Below, in pieces: positions 4,326 to 24,857 of a DNA stretch of 32,000 nucleotides. Under the pieces are notes generated by a model that saw nothing but the letters and a program-made list of their open reading frames with translations, had not been told where the DNA came from and ran no database searches. A program made the position numbers and the translations under genes. Origin of the DNA: Candidatus Electrothrix sp. GW3-4 (GTDB taxonomy: Bacteria > Desulfobacterota > Desulfobulbia > Desulfobulbales > Desulfobulbaceae); NCBI RefSeq assembly GCF_037902255.1, contig NZ_CP147990.1:4110001-4142000 (forward strand), written 5' to 3'. The number at the start of each line of letters is the position of its first letter. Position 1 is the first letter of the stretch.

Positions 4326-4382
4326 AAAGGGCAAAAGAGAAGGGCAATCTCCCTCTATCCCAACTTCGCCTCTCCTTCTTGT

Positions 4383-5842
4383 CTACTTTTCAATCCCGCC
4401 GAGGCAGAGATATTTCTGTTCCAGATATTCTTCGATACCGTATTTCGAGCCCTCACGCCCAATACCCGACTCCTTGATGCCGCCAAAGGGAGCAGATTCT
4501 GTTGACATGATACCTGTATTAACTCCAACCATACCGTACTCCAAGGCCTCGGACACACGCCAGCATCGCCCTATGTCCTTGCTGAAAAAATACGAGGCCA
4601 GACCATAAGGCGTATCATTGGCCACGGCAACAGCCTCTTCTTCCGTGGCAAAGGAAAAGAGCGGGGCCACAGGACCAAAGGTCTCCTCATAGGCGATCTG
4701 CATCTCTGTGGTCACATCAAGAAGGATCGTCGGTTCAAAAAGAAGCCGGTTTCCCCTACTCTCTTGCCACCTGATCCGAGACGGGCCCCTTTGCCCAGAG
4801 CATCCTGGATCTGCTGCTCCACTTTTTGGACCGCATTCAGATCGATAAGTGGTCCCTGATTGACCCCTTCATCAAAGCCGTTTCCTACCTTGAGCTGCGC
4901 CTGCACGGCCTGAATCAGCTTTTCTGCAAAGGCATCATATACTCCTTCCTGAACAATAAAACGATTGGCGCAAACGCATGTTTGTCCGGAATTTCGATAC
5001 TTCGAAGCAATGGCATTAGTAACCGCTTCATCTAAATCGGCATCATCAAAAACGATGAACGGAGCGTGCCCACCCAGCTCCAGGGAAATTTTCTTGACCG
5101 TATCTGCGCATTGCCGCATCAACATCTTCCCTATTTCCGTGGAACCGGTAAAACTGAGTTTGCGAACAGTTGGGCTTTCTGTTAATGCCCCGCCGATTGC
5201 GGAGGCCGACCCGGTCAGGACATTAAAGATACCCGGCGGTATTCCTGCCTCCTCGGCAAGCTTGGCCAAGGCCAAGGCGGAAAGAGGGGTCTGACTCGCA
5301 GGTTTCACAATCACCGGGCAACCTGCGGCCAAGGCCGGAGCAGCTTTGCGGGTGATCATAGCAGAAGGAAAATTCCAGGGAGTAATGGCTGCACAGACAC
5401 CGACGGGTTGCTTAAGGACGATGATCCGTTTTCCCGGTTGGGCCATGGGAATAGTGTCCCCGTAGACTCGTTTCGCTTCCTCTGCAAACCATTCCACAAA
5501 ACTGGCTGCGTAGAGGATCTCACCCCGTGATTCTGTCAGCGGCTTGCCCTGCTCGGCGGTCATAATGATGGCTAAATCTTCCTGATGCTCAATAATTAGA
5601 TTATACCAGCGTCGAATGAGCCGCGAACGTTCATGGGCGGTTTTGCTTCGCCATACTGGCCAGGCAGCGTCGGCAGCCTCTATCGCCTGGAAAGTTTCTT
5701 CCCGTCCCAAGGAAGGGACAGAACCGATCAATGCACCATTTGCCGGGTTATGCACGGCAATGCTCTTTTCATCTCCTGAGGAGATCCAATTTCCGTTAAT
5801 AAAACAACGGCTACAAAGCAAGTCTTTATTTTTTAAAATCAT
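4383..5842 (-). pseudogene. gabD: Succinate-semialdehyde / NAD(P)+ aldehyde dehydrogenase (GabD-like), reading frame broken once
   Basis: ORFs 4712..5842 (376 aa) and 4383..4715 (110 aa) together cover a roughly 486-aa ALDH: ITPWNFPSAMITRK, SFTGSTEIGK, LELGGHAPFIVF, SGQTCVCANR, then [11 protein letters not shown]...[24 protein letters not shown]. The break is at GETGFF|LNRRSFLM*. Adding one base to the run at 4737-4741 (A5 on +, T5 in the gene) restores [29 protein letters not shown]. Confidence 0.88.
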
Positions 5843-8368: not shown

Positions 8369-9805
8369 ATGAATAAAAGCAAGAAGATGGAAAGCCATAA
8401 TTCGACACCGCTAGCCGAGCGCATGCGACCGGTTTCACTGGATAATTTCTCAGGACAACAACACCTTGTCGGCAAGGGGAAGCTACTCCATGAATTAATC
8501 CATAACAGCACCATCCCCTCCTTGCTTCTCTGGGGGCCTCCAGGCTCAGGAAAAACCACCTTGGCCTCTATTGTAGCCCATACCATGCAGGCAGATTTTA
8601 TATTTTTTTCCGCAGTGTTATCTGGGGTAAAAGAACTTAGGAAGATTGTCCAGGAGACGCGAGAAAGAAAGAAAGAGGAAGAAAGGCAAACCATCCTTTT
8701 TGTCGATGAGATTCATCGCTTTAACAAGAGCCAACAGGATGCCTTATTGCCCCATGTGGAAAGCGGTCTCCTGACCTTGATCGGTGCGACAACGGAAAAT
8801 CCCTCTTTTGAGGTCATAGCTCCCCTGCTCTCTCGCTGCCAGATGCTGCTCTTGCACCCCCTTGCCGTGGAAGACATCATCTGCATCCTCATGCGGGCCC
8901 TGGAGGATGAAAACACCGGCCTGGGTGCTTATGGTCTTCAGATGGAAAAAGAGGTTGCCGAGATGATCGCCCAAGCCGCTGATGGTGACTGTCGACGGGC
9001 CCTCAACTATCTTGAAACCGCAGCACTCCTTATCATCAAAGACGAGAATGATACACCACGGACTATCACTCGTGAAACCATTCTTGAGGTGGTACAGGGA
9101 CAGACACTTCGTTATGATCGGGCAGGAGAAGAGCATTACAACCTGATATCAGCCCTCCATAAAAGCCTGCGCGACAGTGATCCAGATGGCGCCTGCTATT
9201 GGTTAGGGCGAATGCTGGTCAGCGGCGAAGACCCGCTCTATATTGCCCGCCGCCTGATTCGTTTTGCCAGTGAGGACATCGGTGTCAGCGATCCAAGGGC
9301 CCTGGAAGTAGCAATAAGTTGCCGTAAGGCCTATGATATGCTCGGTTCACCTGAGGGAGATCTGGCCTTATACCAGGCCACGGTCTATCTTGCGACGGCT
9401 CCAAAAAGCAATGCCTTGTATTTAACGGAAAAAAAGATTAAAGAAGAAATACGTCGCTCCGGCACATTATCTGTGCCCCTCCACCTGCGGAATGCGCCCA
9501 CAGGACTCATGAAGAAAATCGGGTACGGGAAGGGATACCAATACGCTCATGACGCTAAGGATGGCCTCGTCGTTCAGGAACATCTACCGGAACAGCTTGC
9601 AGGAAGACGTTTTTATCAGCCCACGGAGAGAGGATTTGAAGCTGTTATTCATGATCGTTTGACGAAATGGCGAAAGATCCTTCAACAACGGGCAGTACAA
9701 CATCGAAAGAAGAAGACTCAAAAAAGGGCTGACTCTACCAAGGGCGAGGTTATTCGTTTGCTGATGAACTTTTCCTCACCAACAGGAGTCCCCATAGCAA
9801 CCTAA
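8369..9805 (+). CDS. rarA: Replication-associated recombination protein A (AAA+ ATPase RarA/MgsA)
   Basis: PLAERMRPVSLDNFSGQQHLVG...LLLWGPPGSGKTTLA (Walker A), ILFVDEIHRFNKSQQDALLP (Walker B / sensor), MgsA C-terminal domain (YDRAGEEHYNLISALHKSLRDSDPDGACYWLGRML). An alternative start is ATG 8387. There is a basic C-terminal tail of about 40 aa beyond the usual end. Confidence 0.92.
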   Translation: MNKSKKMESHNSTPLAERMRPVSLDNFSGQQHLVGKGKLLHELIHNSTIPSLLLWGPPGSGKTTLASIVAHTMQADFIFFSAVLSGVKELRKIVQETRERKKEEERQTILFVDEIHRFNKSQQDALLPHVESGLLTLIGATTENPSFEVIAPLLSRCQMLLLHPLAVEDIICILMRALEDENTGLGAYGLQMEKEVAEMIAQAADGDCRRALNYLETAALLIIKDENDTPRTITRETILEVVQGQTLRYDRAGEEHYNLISALHKSLRDSDPDGACYWLGRMLVSGEDPLYIARRLIRFASEDIGVSDPRALEVAISCRKAYDMLGSPEGDLALYQATVYLATAPKSNALYLTEKKIKEEIRRSGTLSVPLHLRNAPTGLMKKIGYGKGYQYAHDAKDGLVVQEHLPEQLAGRRFYQPTERGFEAVIHDRLTKWRKILQQRAVQHRKKKTQKRADSTKGEVIRLLMNFSSPTGVPIAT

Positions 9806-9838: not shown

Positions 9839-11578
9839 ATGAATCTTATTGCTATGCTGTCTCGGAAAAAATACATATTTTCCCATCTTTTTCTGCTGCT
9901 GATTGTGCTGCTGACCCTGGCACCGTCATCTTGGGCAGAAGAGTTTTTACTTTTTTACGGGAATGATGTACGCGGTGAGCTCCAACCCTGTGGTTGAAAG
10001 AGAAAACAACTGGGCGGGCTGTCCAGAAAAGCATTACAGATAACACAACGTGCTGAGCAGGAAAAACTTCCTTTCCTGTTCGTTGATAGCGGTTCTCTGC
10101 TTTTTCAGCATAAAAAGATACAGGCAAAAAAAGAAGCCGCAAAAAAAGTCGAGGCCAACGGTATCGCTGCAGCCATGCAGGCGATGAACTGCCGGGCTGT
10201 CGGTATTGGTGCCCACGATTTGGCTGCTGGTGTCAACTTGTTGAAAGAGCTTCAGGAACGGCATAAAACCGTTTGGCTCTCCATGAATCTGGTTGATCCA
10301 GAAAAAAAGGAGCCTATCTTCACACCATACCTTATGACCAAGGTCGGTGGCTTGAAGATTGCTCTCTTAGGATTGACAGACGACCAGAGGGATCATAATG
10401 GAGAAGGTGAAGAGAAAGGAGGGTATACCATCCTGCCTTGGCAGGATACCCTGCCCAAAATCCTTGCTCAGGTAGGGAAAAAAGTCGATATGACCATTCT
10501 TCTTTCAAGTTATTCCTACCAAATCAATAAAGAAATAGCTGAAACGGTTGACGGCCTTCATATGATTCTGGAATCTGGCCATGCCGCTCCGACCGCAGAA
10601 CCCTATAAAGTTGAAGATACGCTGATTGCCCAAACCGGAACACGAGGGAAATATCTGGGCATGATGCGAATTGACTGGAACGAAGCTGGGCAATGGACCG
10701 ATAAGTCCTTTACTCGCCTACGAACAGAGGAAAATCGCCTGAAGCGCGTAAACCAACAACTTGCCCGCCTGGAAAAACAAAAAGATACGGCGGCATTGGC
10801 CAAAAATACAGGCTACAAAAAATTATCCGCAGAGAAAAAAGAGCTTACTCAAAGTATAAAGGCGTTAAAGCAAAGCAGGGATTCTGCTGCCCCGGAGGAC
10901 GATGGTATGTGTAAATATACCAATCGGTTTGTCCCGTTGAATACCTCCTTACCGGAAGATCCAGAGGTCAAAAAAATTATTGACCGGGCTATTCAACAGG
11001 CAAATGCAATCAACCAACAGCGGATTGCCAAAACAGGTCAGAACGATCCCACAATCACCCTTCAGGACCTAGCGGGTTCACAGAAATGCCAGCAATGTCA
11101 TGCCGCCCAAATGACGGTCTGGCAGGACAGTAACCATGCACAGGCGTGGACTACCCTGGAAAAGAACAATCAGCAGTTTAACGAAGATTGCCTGATCTGT
11201 CACGTCACCTTACCCTTTTATGATACAGACAAGGTAAAGGCTGGTAATCTCCTGTTGATGCTGCCAAAGTCCTTGAAGAATATTGGCTGCGAGGCCTGTC
11301 ACGGGCCAGCTGCAGCACATAGCGCAGGCCAGGGCAAGGTACCTGTTGCCCGGCCAGATGAAAAAATCTGCCTCGGATGCCACACACCCGACCATGACGA
11401 TAATTTCATCTTTACCGAAAAGGCCAAGCGGTTAGGTTGCACGTCATCGGCACAGGCACAAAAACTGGAACAAAAAAAACAGGTGAAGAAGATGGAGGAG
11501 AAAGAAGAATCGACAGCCTCTGAGGCAGCAGATCCTCCTCCGACGATTACTCCTCAGGGGAAAAAAGTAAAAAAATAA
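9839..11578 (+). CDS. Periplasmic 5'-nucleotidase-like / tetrahaem c-type cytochrome; candidate selenoprotein (in-frame TGA at 9995-9997, codon 53)
   Basis: ATG 9839 encodes the signal peptide MNLIAMLSRKKYIFSHLFLLLIVLLTLAPSSWA, then EEFLLFYGNDVRGELQPCG-TGA-KRKQLGGLSRKALQITQRAEQEKLPFLFVDSGSLLF...AAAMQAMNCRAVGIGAHDLAAG. This continues in the same frame into track ORF 10175..11578. Four CxxCH motifs are present (CQQCH 11087-11101, CLICH, CEACH, CLGCH 11369-11383), with a coiled-coil segment between the two domains. The downstream ORF alone has no export signal. Confidence 0.65.
10010..10026 (+). promoter_or_regulatory. SECIS-like hairpin 12 nt downstream of the in-frame UGA
   Basis: CUGGGC (10010-10015) pairs with GUCCAG (10021-10026). 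That is 6 bp including one G-U pair, with a G-rich apical loop GGGCU (10016-10020). The spacer after UGA is AAGAGAAAACAA (12 nt). Confidence 0.45.
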
Positions 11579-16399: not shown

Positions 16400-17851
16400 T
16401 TATGCTGCTTTCCTGGTCCACACGTTTGAATCTCGAAAAATCTTATCCTCAATTTTACCCTTCAAAATCGTGGAGCGGATTTTTCGCATTATTGCACTGG
16501 GAGCGACATTGAGAAAATCACGCATAAGCAAACCGGCAAGAACATTTTTCGTTGTTCGTTCAGAAGGTATTTCCCGTGAACGTGTCTTGAGGAACCCTTC
16601 ATACTGATGCCAAATCTCCGTGGAGAACAGCGTTGCGACCAACTGGAGCAATCCCAAGGTGATTGCACCAATATTCACAAACCCTTCTGTCGCATCCCAG
16701 CATCGTTGAATGGCTTGTAGGTTTTTCGGTTTCGGAGTAATGAGTTCGCTGTTTCTTCTGGGTTTTCTGGAGTGTTTTGGCATCCCTTTTGACCAGAAAT
16801 GACACTGAAATGCATGGATAACATTTTTAAGCATATCGAACATGGTTTCAATTCGTACCCTAAGGCAGTACAGTTCAATTGCTGCCAGTGGGTCCTGTGA
16901 TACGTTGCTACACATAAGCACAATACGACCATGAGATGTTTCGGCAAAAACAAAACGAAGAGTGGTGCGCAAAGGCTGCCACAGTAAATCAAGATGATAC
17001 AGCTTGATCGTTTCAACCTTATTGTAGATACGTGCTTCAACTGTAGCAAAACAACTCTGATGGTCAAAAATCTCCATCAGATGAACTTTTTCACCGTATT
17101 TTGCGTAGCAACCTGATCCCTTATAGTCTTTTGGATCTGCTTGAAAATAAGCGACATAATTCTTTTTTGCCCGGACAATAATTTCCACCAAAGGCTGCTG
17201 AAGAGTCAATGAGTATATCGTTTTGGCTCGGTTAAAAACTGTTTTTGTAGAGAAGAAAGCGTCCAGAACCAATAGAGAAGGCTGGTTCGTCCTCAGTGCA
17301 AAAAATAGAGCCATATCAACCATGCATTCTCCCATAGTTGGTACATTGTCATTGTTTTCTTTCCCCAAATGTTGATATCCTTGATGCATTTGCAACATCA
17401 GCGGCAAAGCGAACATATGGGGAGCAACGCCGGTAACCGCAGCAAGAGCCCCCCAGCATTGCCCACGGAAATAACTGGGCTTACTTTGTGTGTCGCTGTC
17501 CTGATGTAACGTAACAACTCCAGGCATTTTTCGTCCGTCTCGCGAGAGGACAGTATGGTCTCCCAGTGTGACGATACGTCCTTGTGAGGTCATACATAAC
17601 CCACTTGAACTCACAAAGAAGAACCAATGATTCAGTAATTCGTTCAGAGTCCAGGCCGAAGAACGAAAAAAATGATTTAACGTGTGATAGCCCGGTATTT
17701 CTAACAACCAGAAACGGCAGAAAGAACTGACACCGACCATTTCTGTGCTGCCAATAAAACCGAGAACAATCATGACAAAAATAAGCCAGGTTTTGTCACG
17801 GGAAAAAACAGTACGAAAGCTTGTTAACGAGTCATACAAATAGTTGATCAT
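16400..17851 (-). CDS. DDE transposase of IS-A (IS4-type Y(2)R(3)E(6)K signature)
   Basis: 483 aa. Candidate DDE residues are in LGDHTV, LVLDAFF and RIETMF. The motif LYCLRVRIETMFDMLK fits Y-x2-R-x3-E-x6-K, the IS4-family hallmark. Confidence 0.88.
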   Translation of the reverse strand: MINYLYDSLTSFRTVFSRDKTWLIFVMIVLGFIGSTEMVGVSSFCRFWLLEIPGYHTLNHFFRSSAWTLNELLNHWFFFVSSSGLCMTSQGRIVTLGDHTVLSRDGRKMPGVVTLHQDSDTQSKPSYFRGQCWGALAAVTGVAPHMFALPLMLQMHQGYQHLGKENNDNVPTMGECMVDMALFFALRTNQPSLLVLDAFFSTKTVFNRAKTIYSLTLQQPLVEIIVRAKKNYVAYFQADPKDYKGSGCYAKYGEKVHLMEIFDHQSCFATVEARIYNKVETIKLYHLDLLWQPLRTTLRFVFAETSHGRIVLMCSNVSQDPLAAIELYCLRVRIETMFDMLKNVIHAFQCHFWSKGMPKHSRKPRRNSELITPKPKNLQAIQRCWDATEGFVNIGAITLGLLQLVATLFSTEIWHQYEGFLKTRSREIPSERTTKNVLAGLLMRDFLNVAPSAIMRKIRSTILKGKIEDKIFRDSNVWTRKAA

Positions 17852-17896
17852 ATAATCACCGCTTCTTTTTTTGAAGAAGCCTATGATTATATGATC
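17846..17896 (-). promoter_or_regulatory. Nested hairpin covering the IS-A transposase start codon (copy 1)
   Basis: Same sequence as 23721-23771 in copy 2: 13-bp arms GATCATATAATCA / TGATTATATGATC enclose a 7-bp inner stem GCTTCTT / AAGAAGC. The ATG lies inside the distal arm. Confidence 0.6.
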
Positions 17897-18001
17897 GTTT
17901 TACAATCTCAGCAAGTCAGCCGAGAACTTACGACTGTAGAGTAATGATGGGTTCTGTGCAGGAGACAACTCTGCGGGAGAACTCATGAGACAATGAAAAT
18001 C

Positions 18002-23601: not shown

Positions 23602-23720
23602 AATACCCTCTCTATTTTTTTTTCTCTTTCCTCAGCAGCTATGAAGGAAAGCATGGGACTGTACCTCGTACCGTCCTCTACAGTCGTAAGTTCTCGGCTG
23701 ACTTGCTGAGATTGTAAAAC

Positions 23721-23771
23721 GATCATATAATCATAGGCTTCTTCAAAAAAAGAAGCGGTGATTATATGATC
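23721..23771 (+). promoter_or_regulatory. IS-A internal promoter candidate plus start-codon-sequestering hairpin (copy 2 coordinates)
   Basis: TTGCTG (23703-23708) - 17 nt - TATAAT (23726-23731). The 13-bp arms are GATCATATAATCA (23721-23733) and TGATTATATGATC (23759-23771). The inner stem is GCTTCTT/AAGAAGC. The transposase ATG at 23766-23768 lies inside the right arm. Confidence 0.5.
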
Positions 23772-24857
23772 AACTATTTGTATGACTCGTTAACAAGCTT
23801 TCGTACTGTTTTTTCCCGTGACAAAACCTGGCTTATTTTTGTCATGATTGTTCTCGGTTTTATTGGCAGCACAGAAATGGTCGGTGTCAGTTCTTTCTGC
23901 CGTTTCTGGTTGTTAGAAATACCGGGCTATCACACGTTAAATCATTTTTTTCGTTCTTCGGCCTGGACTCTGAACGAATTACTGAATCATTGGTTCTTCT
24001 TTGTGAGTTCAAGTGGGTTATGTATGACCTCACAAGGACGTATCGTCACACTGGGAGACCATACTGTCCTCTCGCGAGACGGACGAAAAATGCCTGGAGT
24101 TGTTACGTTACATCAGGACAGCGACACACAAAGTAAGCCCAGTTATTTCCGTGGGCAATGCTGGGGGGCTCTTGCTGCGGTTACCGGCGTTGCTCCCCAT
24201 ATGTTCGCTTTGCCGCTGATGTTGCAAATGCATCAAGGATATCAACATTTGGGGAAAGAAAACAATGACAATGTACCAACTATGGGAGAATGCATGGTTG
24301 ATATGGCTCTATTTTTTGCACTGAGGACGAACCAGCCTTCTCTATTGGTTCTGGACGCTTTCTTCTCTACAAAAACAGTTTTTAACCGAGCCAAAACGAT
24401 ATACTCATTGACTCTTCAGCAGCCTTTGGTGGAAATTATTGTCCGGGCAAAAAAGAATTATGTCGCTTATTTTCAAGCAGATCCAAAAGACTATAAGGGA
24501 TCAGGTTGCTACGCAAAATACGGTGAAAAAGTTCATCTGATGGAGATTTTTGACCATCAGAGTTGTTTTGCTACAGTTGAAGCACGTATCTACAATAAGG
24601 TTGAAACGATCAAGCTGTATCATCTTGATTTACTGTGGCAGCCTTTGCGCACCACTCTTCGTTTTGTTTTTGCCGAAACATCTCATGGTCGTATTGTGCT
24701 TATGTGTAGCAACGTATCACAGGACCCACTGGCAGCAATTGAACTGTACTGCCTTAGGGTACGAATTGAAACCATGTTCGATATGCTTAAAAATGTTATC
24801 CATGCATTTCAGTGTCATTTCTGGTCAAAAGGGAGGCATCCTTCATATCCGGGTTGA
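23766..24857 (+). pseudogene. IS-A transposase, 5' fragment (identical to copy 1 through ...CHFWSKG, then reads into the nested IS)
   Basis: The 363-aa ORF matches residues 1-356 of the 483-aa copy 1 protein. It then diverges (RHPSYPG*) from the insertion point at 24835. Confidence 0.9.

Follow-up and report, generated by a model that had tools for sequence, protein, structure and literature searches.

A probable SECIS element written within a conserved peptide motif of a UshA-like selenoprotein gene from a marine cable bacterium

The SECIS element of the Escherichia coli fdhF gene lies in coding sequence directly 3' of an in-frame UGA, and the determinants by which E. coli SelB recognizes it are a bulged U17 and the loop dinucleotide G23-U24 (PMC8659212). 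These requirements belong to E. coli SelB and do not hold for every bacterial SECIS element; what is generally expected is a hairpin whose stem has 6-8 bp and whose loop carries a conserved G some 20 nt past the UGA (PMC4605307). The SECIS of Moorella thermoacetica fdhA has been crystallized with the winged-helix domains of SelB (PDB 1WSU and 2UWM, cited in PMC4605307). On the protein side, the UshA-like (COG0737) CxU family has stood on selenoprotein lists since the GOS survey (PMC2398784) and is also included in later catalogues (PMC9312934, PMC13188914), and the accessible portions of these three reports were found to hold no description of its SECIS. A literature search for selenoproteins of cable bacteria or of Electrothrix gave nothing relevant. 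Here, we work out the SECIS anatomy of the UshA-like family around a gene of Candidatus Electrothrix sp. GW3-4.

The stretch of DNA analyzed, referred to below as the window, is 32,000 nucleotides long (contig NZ_CP147990.1, positions 4,110,001 to 4,142,000), and all coordinates are counted from its first letter. The features of the gene and of the hairpin that follows its in-frame UGA are these:

9839 to 11578, + strand: read-through gene for a predicted UshA-like selenoprotein, 579 codons, a single TGA in frame and TAA as the stop (from the translation and the NF041198 match).
9839 to 9937, + strand: putative signal peptide MNLIAMLSRKKYIFSHLFLLLIVLLTLAPSSWA, with a basic n-region, a hydrophobic core and an S-W-A site, read from the translation by eye.
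9995 to 9997, + strand: in-frame UGA, codon 53 of the frame from the ATG at 9839, in the motif P-C-G-U.
9998 to 10009, + strand: spacer AAGAGAAAACAA from the UGA to the hairpin, 12 nt, codons K R K Q.
10010 to 10015, + strand: 5' arm CUGGGC, Leu-Gly codons (MFE fold and orthologue alignment).
10016 to 10020, + strand: apical loop GGGCU, positions 22-26 from the U of the UGA, the presumed SelB contact (orthologue comparison).
10021 to 10026, + strand: 3' arm GUCCAG, within the Leu-Ser-Arg codons CUG UCC AGA (codon conservation).
11084 to 11401, + strand: multihaem cytochrome c domain at the C terminus; its four CxxCH motifs are CQQCH, CLICH, CEACH and CLGCH (PF13435, PF14522).

When the frame is read through, its product matches the NCBIfam model NF041198 (UshA_like_PCGU) at 604.3 bits (E = 1.7e-181; the curated cut-off is 275), and the alignment forms one stretch across the TGA that joins residues 16-525 to profile positions 4-518 of 519. 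Around this codon the product is ELQPCG*KRKQLGGLSRKA, a CxU (P-C-G-U) motif in which the asterisk is the TGA at 9995. Toward the C terminus, PF13435 matches residues 416-489 (E = 5e-12) and PF14522 residues 480-521. The window gene is a full-length member of the family, with PCG-U and a C-terminal cytochrome domain, and shows no material difference from the family at the protein level. Its nearest relatives are Candidatus Electrothrix and other Desulfobulbaceae, and homologues that NCBI names "UshA-like (seleno)protein" come from Ca. Electrothrix aestuarii, Electronema and Desulfobulbaceae. The putative signal peptide agrees with the c-type haem domain, which requires export; lying upstream of the TGA, it would serve the product only upon read-through of that codon.

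Related loci fall into two forms at the aligned codon. This codon is TGA in 67 of them (17 from genomes and 50 from metagenomes, the latter scanned with a query built from four sequences), so that the Sec form, with the window, totals 68 TGA-bearing genes. It is a Cys codon, TGC or TGT, in 57 others (46 of PCGC type, 10 from metagenomes and the single locus L141). The orthologue of Electronema sp. JM, for instance, has TGC at the Sec position and 3/6 of the hairpin pairs. A neighbor-joining (NJ) tree of the family, which is rough, suggests a pattern of single origin plus reversion; it includes a Cys form (L111) that lies inside the Sec clade and whose 3' arm has decayed. Genome-wide reassignment of UGA was also considered and was rejected, because TGA is the ordinary stop of at least seven other open reading frames of the window.

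A preliminary description of the window had reported, after this TGA, a 12-nt spacer and a 6-bp stem with one G-U pair closing a GGGCU loop, and every element of that report proved exact, including its coordinates. The hairpin is the 17-mer CUGGGCGGGCUGUCCAG, and its stem pairs are, in order, C-G, U-A, G-C, G-C, G-U and C-G. Folding, proposed in the same description as a check, returned exactly the 10010-10026 hairpin in both the MFE and the centroid structures of 9995-10060 and 9980-10045, with pair probabilities of at least 0.96 in the window (mean 0.96-0.99 over three folding contexts). Single-sequence thermodynamics cannot tell this hairpin from chance, however, and on its own it is weak evidence, much as the preliminary description had said in calling the hairpin only supportive. 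Compared with dinucleotide shuffles the hairpin shows no excess stability (z about -0.5, with values of -0.45 and -0.64), and some hairpin of at least 6 bp at a spacing of 9-15 nt follows 114 of the 1245 TGA triplets of the window (9%), the exact geometry seen here following only 0.5% of them. The significance of the hairpin comes from comparison with orthologues. No Rfam family reached its gathering threshold anywhere in the window, a result that is uninformative about the hairpin. A covariance model of the element finds a single site in the window, at 60 bits with a runner-up at 11.8 bits, and no further copy either there or in the flanks of 80 loci.

How the hairpin compares with described elements depends on the rule that is applied. 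It agrees with the general bacterial rule (PMC4605307), having a stem of 6 bp and, as nt 19 and 20 past the UGA, the loop residues G22 and G23. Of the E. coli-type determinants (PMC8659212), G23 is present in the window, whereas U24 and the bulged U17 are absent. The fdhF 47-mer used for comparison was verified by 100% identity in 5413 E. coli records, and the likeness to fdhF in spacing and loop noted in the preliminary description is accurate when judged by this sequence and by the rules of PMC8659212. Both elements have a 17-nt upper stem-loop, at nt 15-31 in fdhF and nt 16-32 here, both start their apical loop at position 22, and the GGUCUG at positions 22-27 of fdhF is, in sequence and in register, the consensus of most orthologues of the window gene. 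The two differ in several respects: the spacer is 12 nt here and 11 nt in fdhF; the stem here is a perfect 6 bp, with no counterpart of the bulged U17; the loop has 5 nt closed by C-G rather than 4 nt closed by A-U; and position 24, U in fdhF, is G or A in the window and its nearest relatives. Further, fdhF has a lower helix back to the UGA that is absent from the window folds because of A-rich flanks, and that is present in some members of a second clade (for example, L034).

Across the TGA-bearing genes the spacer is 12 nt in 68/68, with a freely varying sequence, and the 17-nt hairpin YUGGGC-GGNCU-GYCCAR stands at that register in 67/68, counts that are not independent events because the Sec sequences are related to each other. 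This bears out the expectation, raised at the outset, that TGA-bearing orthologues should keep the hairpin even where their amino acids drift. The genome set of Sec forms (the window and 17 loci) keeps a mean of 5.7/6 pairs at -7.35 kcal/mol, against 3.1/6 pairs and +1.6 kcal/mol for the Cys-codon rows of the same table. Over 54 distinct sequences, 99.1% of the hairpin cells are paired, compared with 21-55% in slid registers. Amino-acid changes within the motif (L to R, S to P, R to K) leave the hairpin in place by way of compensatory or wobble changes; C-G has become U-A in four sequences, U-A has become G-C in one and G-U has become G-C in six, and true double compensatory changes are few (2/6 pairs). 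In longer folding contexts the predicted probability of this short stem drops below 0.5 in about 44% of orthologues, owing to competing local pairings, for instance where CAG is the preceding Gln codon. Ensemble pair probabilities are noisy across orthologues (median 0.55 in contexts of 62-120 nt), and the case therefore rests on codon and covariation evidence instead.

Within the loop, G22 and G23 are invariant in 54/54 aligned sequences. The loop reads GGUCU in 55 of the 68 TGA-bearing genes, GGGCU in 11 (the window among them) and GGACU in 2; GGCCU is found in none of the 68 and occurs only in Cys forms. Position 24 is U in 47 of the 56 distinct Sec sequences, which are of Desulfobulbales type, G in seven and A in two; C never stands there, although elsewhere Gly is most often encoded by GGC. 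This position is G in the window and in its near relatives, and independent changes have occurred at it several times. None of the orthologues has a bulged U, and U17 is paired with A31. The Moorella thermoacetica fdhA SECIS has a regular, bulge-free stem with C-G closure and a GGUCU pentaloop, which is the commonest loop here, on a stem longer than the present one. This likeness serves as a lead rather than a test.

The stem sits wholly inside the codons of a motif that is conserved throughout the family, Cys forms included, and it could accordingly be a mere by-product of conserved LGGLSR, that is, of self-complementary codons in the GG-L-x-R motif of a 5'-nucleotidase-like fold, with no function as RNA. 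Codon usage alone does bring a few GC-rich Cys forms with GGLPRR to 5-6 pairs (six in L068, five in L062 and L070). Against this stands the comparison of genes that encode the same peptide: ten metagenome Cys loci (TGC/TGT) with the identical QLGGLSR[KR]A form 3-5 pairs, whereas 50/50 metagenome TGA loci form 6/6. The Cys loci have fewer pairs because they use different synonymous codons, with Ser as TCG or TCA, Arg as CGN and Leu as CTT. Codon entropy across the 56 distinct Sec orthologues lies at 0-0.76 bits for L5, G6, G7, L8, S9 and R10; the same genes have 19 further columns that are four- or sixfold degenerate and conserved to the same degree, and there it lies at 1.13-2.13 bits. The 5' arm has GGC in 56/56 and Leu only as CTG or TTG, and the 3' arm has CTG in 56/56, TCC in 53/53 and Arg only as AGA or AGG. 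The compensating base changes that accompany amino-acid changes in the motif, and the exclusion of the commonest Gly codon from loop position 24 of Sec forms, likewise speak against a by-product. We regard this explanation as extremely unlikely, and it is contradicted already by the Cys loci and the codon entropies. By these comparisons the hairpin is under RNA-level purifying selection only in UGA-bearing genes, and because the LGGLSR codons contain it entirely, its 17 nt are under protein and RNA constraint together.

A selected RNA structure might still act without SelB: it could, for example, hold up the ribosome as a pause or roadblock and so slow termination at the UGA, or it could serve mRNA stability. 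Such a role would accord with the modest stability of the hairpin (-7.3 kcal/mol) and with the lack of a bulged U17 and, in the window, of U24, two features on which E. coli SelB depends (PMC8659212). We nevertheless consider it very unlikely, given that selection is strictly tied to the presence of the UGA, that the 12-nt spacing is fixed, that the loop G22 G23 N24 C25 U26 is near-invariant with C24 excluded, neither of which a mere roadblock needs, and that the loop matches the SelB-binding loop of fdhF in both sequence and register. Least credible to us is that the TGA is a true stop, leaving either a pseudogene or a 52-aa peptide and a 467-aa protein from the ATG at 10175, with the hairpin irrelevant to both. 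The gene callers behind public databases make the same split: all Sec-type database relatives found are truncated at the TGA, with coverage of at most 91%, and one database protein (P0001, 467 aa) is 100% identical to the product of 10175-11578. The family profile, however, aligns without a break across the TGA, and the sixty codons from the TGA to the ATG at 10175 encode the conserved motifs LGGLSRKA and FVDSGSLLF and are free of stops in 67/67 TGA-bearing related loci. In addition, the putative signal peptide that the haem domain needs lies upstream of the TGA, and the 57 related loci with Cys at this position also argue against a stop.

The explanation that we favor, and hold to be very probable on the comparative evidence, is that 10010-10026 is the SECIS of the gene at 9839-11578, which would encode a periplasmic UshA-like/multihaem-cytochrome selenoprotein of a marine cable bacterium. 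The SECIS compatibility proposed in the preliminary description thereby gains support from conservation in orthologues, from the contrast with Cys forms and from the frozen codons. One reading frame holds a single UGA that aligns with the conserved Cys of homologues (PCG-U vs. PCG-C), and the hairpin, with its 6 bp and 5-nt loop, begins 12 nt past it. By analogy with the SelB paradigm of E. coli and Moorella, a UGA in the A site would leave the 12-nt spacer filling the mRNA channel and the hairpin at the channel entrance, where the C-terminal winged-helix domains of SelB would bind the loop at G22/G23, about 20 nt after the UGA. The SelB-GTP-Sec-tRNA(Sec) complex tethered in this way would out-compete release factor 2, selenocysteine would be inserted at 9995, and translation would then proceed through the phosphoesterase-like and cytochrome domains. 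Comparison of 20 window open reading frames with NCBIfam found no selA, selB, selC or selD in the 32-kb window, and ARAGORN found neither a tRNA-Sec nor any other tRNA there. We infer that the organism is Sec-competent from the conserved UGA and from its lineage; Deltaproteobacteria, the class that traditionally holds Desulfobulbaceae, are described as selenoprotein-rich (PMC9312934).

Two further readings concern the loop and its history. In the cable-bacterium (Electrothrix-type) copies of the element, position 24 is G or A and no U is bulged; the SelB of Desulfobulbales could read a loop code different from the textbook GpU plus bulge, namely G22/G23 and C25-U26 with only C24 excluded. Further, the 17-mer CUGGGCGGUCUGUCCAG occurs unchanged in Desulfobulbaceae and in genes of Gammaproteobacteria or Myxococcota, although the encoded proteins are only about 25% identical; a possible reason is a single ancient origin of Sec, with later reversions to Cys in which the hairpin was free to decay. 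Taken jointly, we rate these two readings as rather unlikely.

The element is almost certainly, as far as sequence comparison can tell, a bacterial SECIS of an already catalogued selenoprotein family, and the known picture of the bacterial Sec insertion mechanism is unchanged by it. Annotation must treat 9839-11578 as a single selenoprotein gene, where automatic gene callers split it at the TGA. The comparison also offers a clean natural demonstration of a SECIS written entirely within a conserved peptide motif: the peptide stays the same, and its codons are frozen into a hairpin behind a UGA and free behind a Cys codon. For cable bacteria, the gene draws attention to a Sec-containing periplasmic protein in which a phosphoesterase-like domain is fused to a tetrahaem cytochrome, with the Sec form in marine Electrothrix-type genomes and Cys in the orthologue of freshwater Electronema.

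The gene runs from an ATG at 9839 to a TAA at 11576-11578, and its sole in-frame TGA lies at 9995-9997 (codon 53). If that TGA were a true stop, the locus would be a split gene. This interpretation is contradicted by the 579-residue read-through product, which matches NCBIfam NF041198 (UshA_like_PCGU, “UshA-like (seleno)protein”; E 1.7e-181; score 604 bits, cut-off 275 bits) in one unbroken stretch across the TGA; by a frame that is conserved, with no other stop, in 67/67 related TGA loci; and by the position, upstream of the TGA, of a putative signal peptide in the translated N-terminus. The C-terminus carries a multihaem cytochrome c domain (PF13435 and PF14522, four CxxCH motifs). The nearest proteins in a collection of 5.8 billion sequences are from Candidatus Electrothrix, Electronema, and other Desulfobulbaceae, and every Sec-type entry there covers at most 91% of the query, indicating that gene callers cut these proteins at the TGA. 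No fewer than seven other window ORFs end at TGA as an ordinary stop, so UGA is not reassigned in this organism and the UGA at 9995-9997 needs a local signal. This family, with its CxU motif, has been catalogued as a selenoprotein family since the GOS survey (PMC2398784) and also appears in recent catalogues (PMC9312934; PMC13188914).

The gene stands alone, with rarA (8369-9805, + strand) on one side and an lptC-kdsC-kdsA-pyrG cluster on the opposite strand on the other; none of selA, selB, selC, and selD occurs within the 32-kb window. Elsewhere in the window, a frameshift interrupts a succinate-semialdehyde/aldehyde dehydrogenase gene (4330-5842, - strand): the ORF at 4712-5842 corresponds to profile positions 1-368 of 482 and the remainder, to GGIEK*, is in another frame. 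The locus is a pseudogene, unless the frameshift arose in sequencing. A 212-aa purH-like ORF (2190-2828, - strand) matches the bifunctional PurH profile (510 residues) just at positions 3-197 and may encode the N-terminal domain on its own or be truncated. Two copies of an IS701-family transposase element (16783-17941 and 23676-24834; 1159 bp, 100% identical, inverted orientation), with ORFs of 483 aa in the first and 363 aa in the second, are separated by ~6 kb containing amiC-like, fumA, and ribH genes; the arrangement could be that of a composite transposon or could stem from assembly.

The hairpin proposed as a SECIS element follows the UGA directly:

9998-10009, + strand: spacer AAGAGAAAACAA, 12 nt between TGA and hairpin
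10010-10015, + strand: 5' arm CTGGGC, forming six pairs with the 3' arm, one of them G-U
10016-10020, + strand: loop GGGCT
10021-10026, + strand: 3' arm GTCCAG

The bases and positions in the preliminary description all agree with the window sequence. In two contexts the RNAfold MFE and centroid structures are exactly the hairpin at 10010-10026, and its mean pair probability in the window is 0.96-0.99. Taken as a single sequence, it has no significance: z-scores relative to dinucleotide shuffles are -0.45 and -0.64, and some hairpin of at least 6 bp at 9-15 nt spacing follows 9% of the 1245 TGA triplets in the window, although this exact geometry follows just 0.5%. The preliminary description likewise called the hairpin alone only supportive. 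A covariance model search of the window found no second element of the same type. The MFE fold of 9980-10045 also contains a small predicted upstream hairpin (CUCCAACC...GGUUGAAAGAG, 9980-10002), the 3' arm of which takes in two bases of the UGA, U and G.

Stronger constraints are provided by related loci, of which a one-genome-per-species scan and a metagenome scan yielded 140, plus one locus for the Electronema protein. The codon aligned with 9995-9997 is TGA in 67 of them (68 genes with the window), comprising Desulfobulbales orthologues, a distant second clade (Myxococcota, Oligoflexia, and gammaproteobacterial MAGs), and one Acidobacteriota MAG, and is TGC or TGT in 57. This is the classical signature of a Sec/Cys pair. 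The spacer is exactly 12 nt in 68/68 TGA-bearing genes, and YUGGGC-GGNCU-GYCCAR occurs in the same register in all of them except the Acidobacteriota gene. TGA members of the genome set (the window and 17 loci) average 5.7/6 pairs at -7.35 kcal/mol; the Cys-codon rows average 3.1/6 pairs at +1.6 kcal/mol. Counted over 54 distinct sequences, paired cells make up 99.1%, compared with 21-55% in slid registers, and pairing persists through changes at 16-32 (C-G to U-A, four sequences), 17-31 (U-A to G-C, one), and 20-28 (G-U to G-C, six; positions count from the U of UGA). Base changes accompany Leu to Arg, Ser to Pro, and Arg to Lys, so the hairpin is kept where amino acids drift, which is the check that the preliminary description had proposed. 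The exceptional Acidobacteriota gene (L077, 2065-2130) has TGA at the PCG-U codon, is surrounded by Cys forms in the NJ tree, and forms only 4/6 pairs in register; it has instead a GC-rich 9-bp hairpin with the loop ~28 nt after the UGA. Here Cys may have changed to Sec independently, with a separate SECIS.

Two features of the flanking bases were also observed. In orthologues with CAG as the Gln codon preceding the hairpin (e.g., L087, L109, and L114), ensemble prediction ranks the in-register hairpin below an alternative in which (G)CAG at nt 12-15 apparently pairs with CUG(U) at nt 25-28; free variation between A and G at position 15 argues that this alternative is not selected. The Gly codon 5' of the UGA (window 9992-9994) is GGC in 49/56 Sec orthologues, with an entropy of 0.69 bits versus ~1.8 bits at other conserved Gly residues, hinting that codon choice or base context directly upstream of the UGA is constrained.

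A conserved hairpin inside a coding region could be a by-product of the peptide LGGLSR. Metagenome loci were retrieved by peptide pattern, and their codons were thus not selected for. All 60 encode QLGGLSR[KR]A, and the 50 with TGA use CTG or TTG, GGC, GGN, CTG, TCC, and AGR, giving 6/6 pairs in every case, whereas the 10 with a Cys codon form 3-5 pairs, with TCG/TCA for Ser, CGN for Arg, CTT for Leu, and GGC for the loop Gly. Across 56 distinct Sec orthologues, with proteins down to ~30% identity, codon entropy is 0-0.76 bits at the six hairpin codons (GGC 56/56, CTG 56/56, TCC 53/53) versus 1.13-2.13 bits at 19 other equally conserved four- or sixfold-degenerate residues of the same genes. 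Some Cys-codon relatives keep a closely similar motif, LGGL(S/A)R, while synonymous changes have removed their hairpin. In a rough NJ tree, L111 (1492-1540) is nested in the Sec clade and L130-L136 form its sister group, all with a decayed 3' arm; the orthologue of the freshwater cable bacterium Electronema sp. JM (L141:1130-1165) has TGC and 3/6 pairs. Several of L111, L130, L132-L136, and L141 have C at loop position 24, and the pattern in this group suggests that Sec reverted to Cys and that the SECIS then decayed. A few GC-rich GGLPRR Cys forms (L068, L062, and L070) do reach 5-6 pairs by codon usage; the motif is hairpin-prone, which may have eased SECIS evolution at this site. A coding by-product is contradicted by the codon patterns of the metagenome loci and of the 56 Sec orthologues. 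A SelB-independent pause element would leave unexplained both the invariant loop and a match to E. coli fdhF in sequence and register.

For that comparison, the 47-mer after the fdhF UGA proved 100% identical in the fdhF of 5413 E. coli records. By the published rules, the E. coli upper stem-loop is 17 nt long (nt 15-31), lies 11 nt from the UGA, and has U17 bulged out and G23/U24 in the loop (PMC8659212); bacterial elements in general have a stem of 6-8 bp and, ~20 nt downstream of the UGA, a conserved G in the loop (PMC4605307). The present element, at nt 16-32 with a 6-bp stem and invariant G22 and G23, follows the general rule, and G22 G23 U24 C25 U26 G27 of fdhF equal the orthologue consensus at the same six positions. 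Unlike fdhF, it has no bulged U, its five-base loop is closed by C-G, the window shows no lower helix, and position 24, G in the window, is variable (U 47, G 7, A 2 of 56 sequences). C occurs there in 0/56 Sec sequences, even though, outside this site, these genes use GGC more than any other Gly codon. The Moorella thermoacetica SECIS crystallized with SelB reportedly also has a regular stem, with a GGUCU cap.

What the alignments present is one gene in which a Sec/Cys-paired UGA is followed by a hairpin with UGA-dependent conservation, fixed spacing, and a near-invariant G-rich loop. By analogy, the loop would bind the C-terminal winged-helix domains of SelB once the ribosome reaches the UGA, and SelB would then bring Sec-tRNA(Sec) to complete the P-C-G-U motif. 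The selenoprotein family is already known and annotated, a SECIS 3' of its UGA is expected, and the predicted element follows general bacterial SECIS rules. Modestly new are the natural experiment of hairpin decay in Cys forms encoding the same peptide, and the finding that the cable-bacterium lineage tolerates G or A as loop base 24 and lacks a bulge, which may indicate that SelB reads the signal somewhat differently there.
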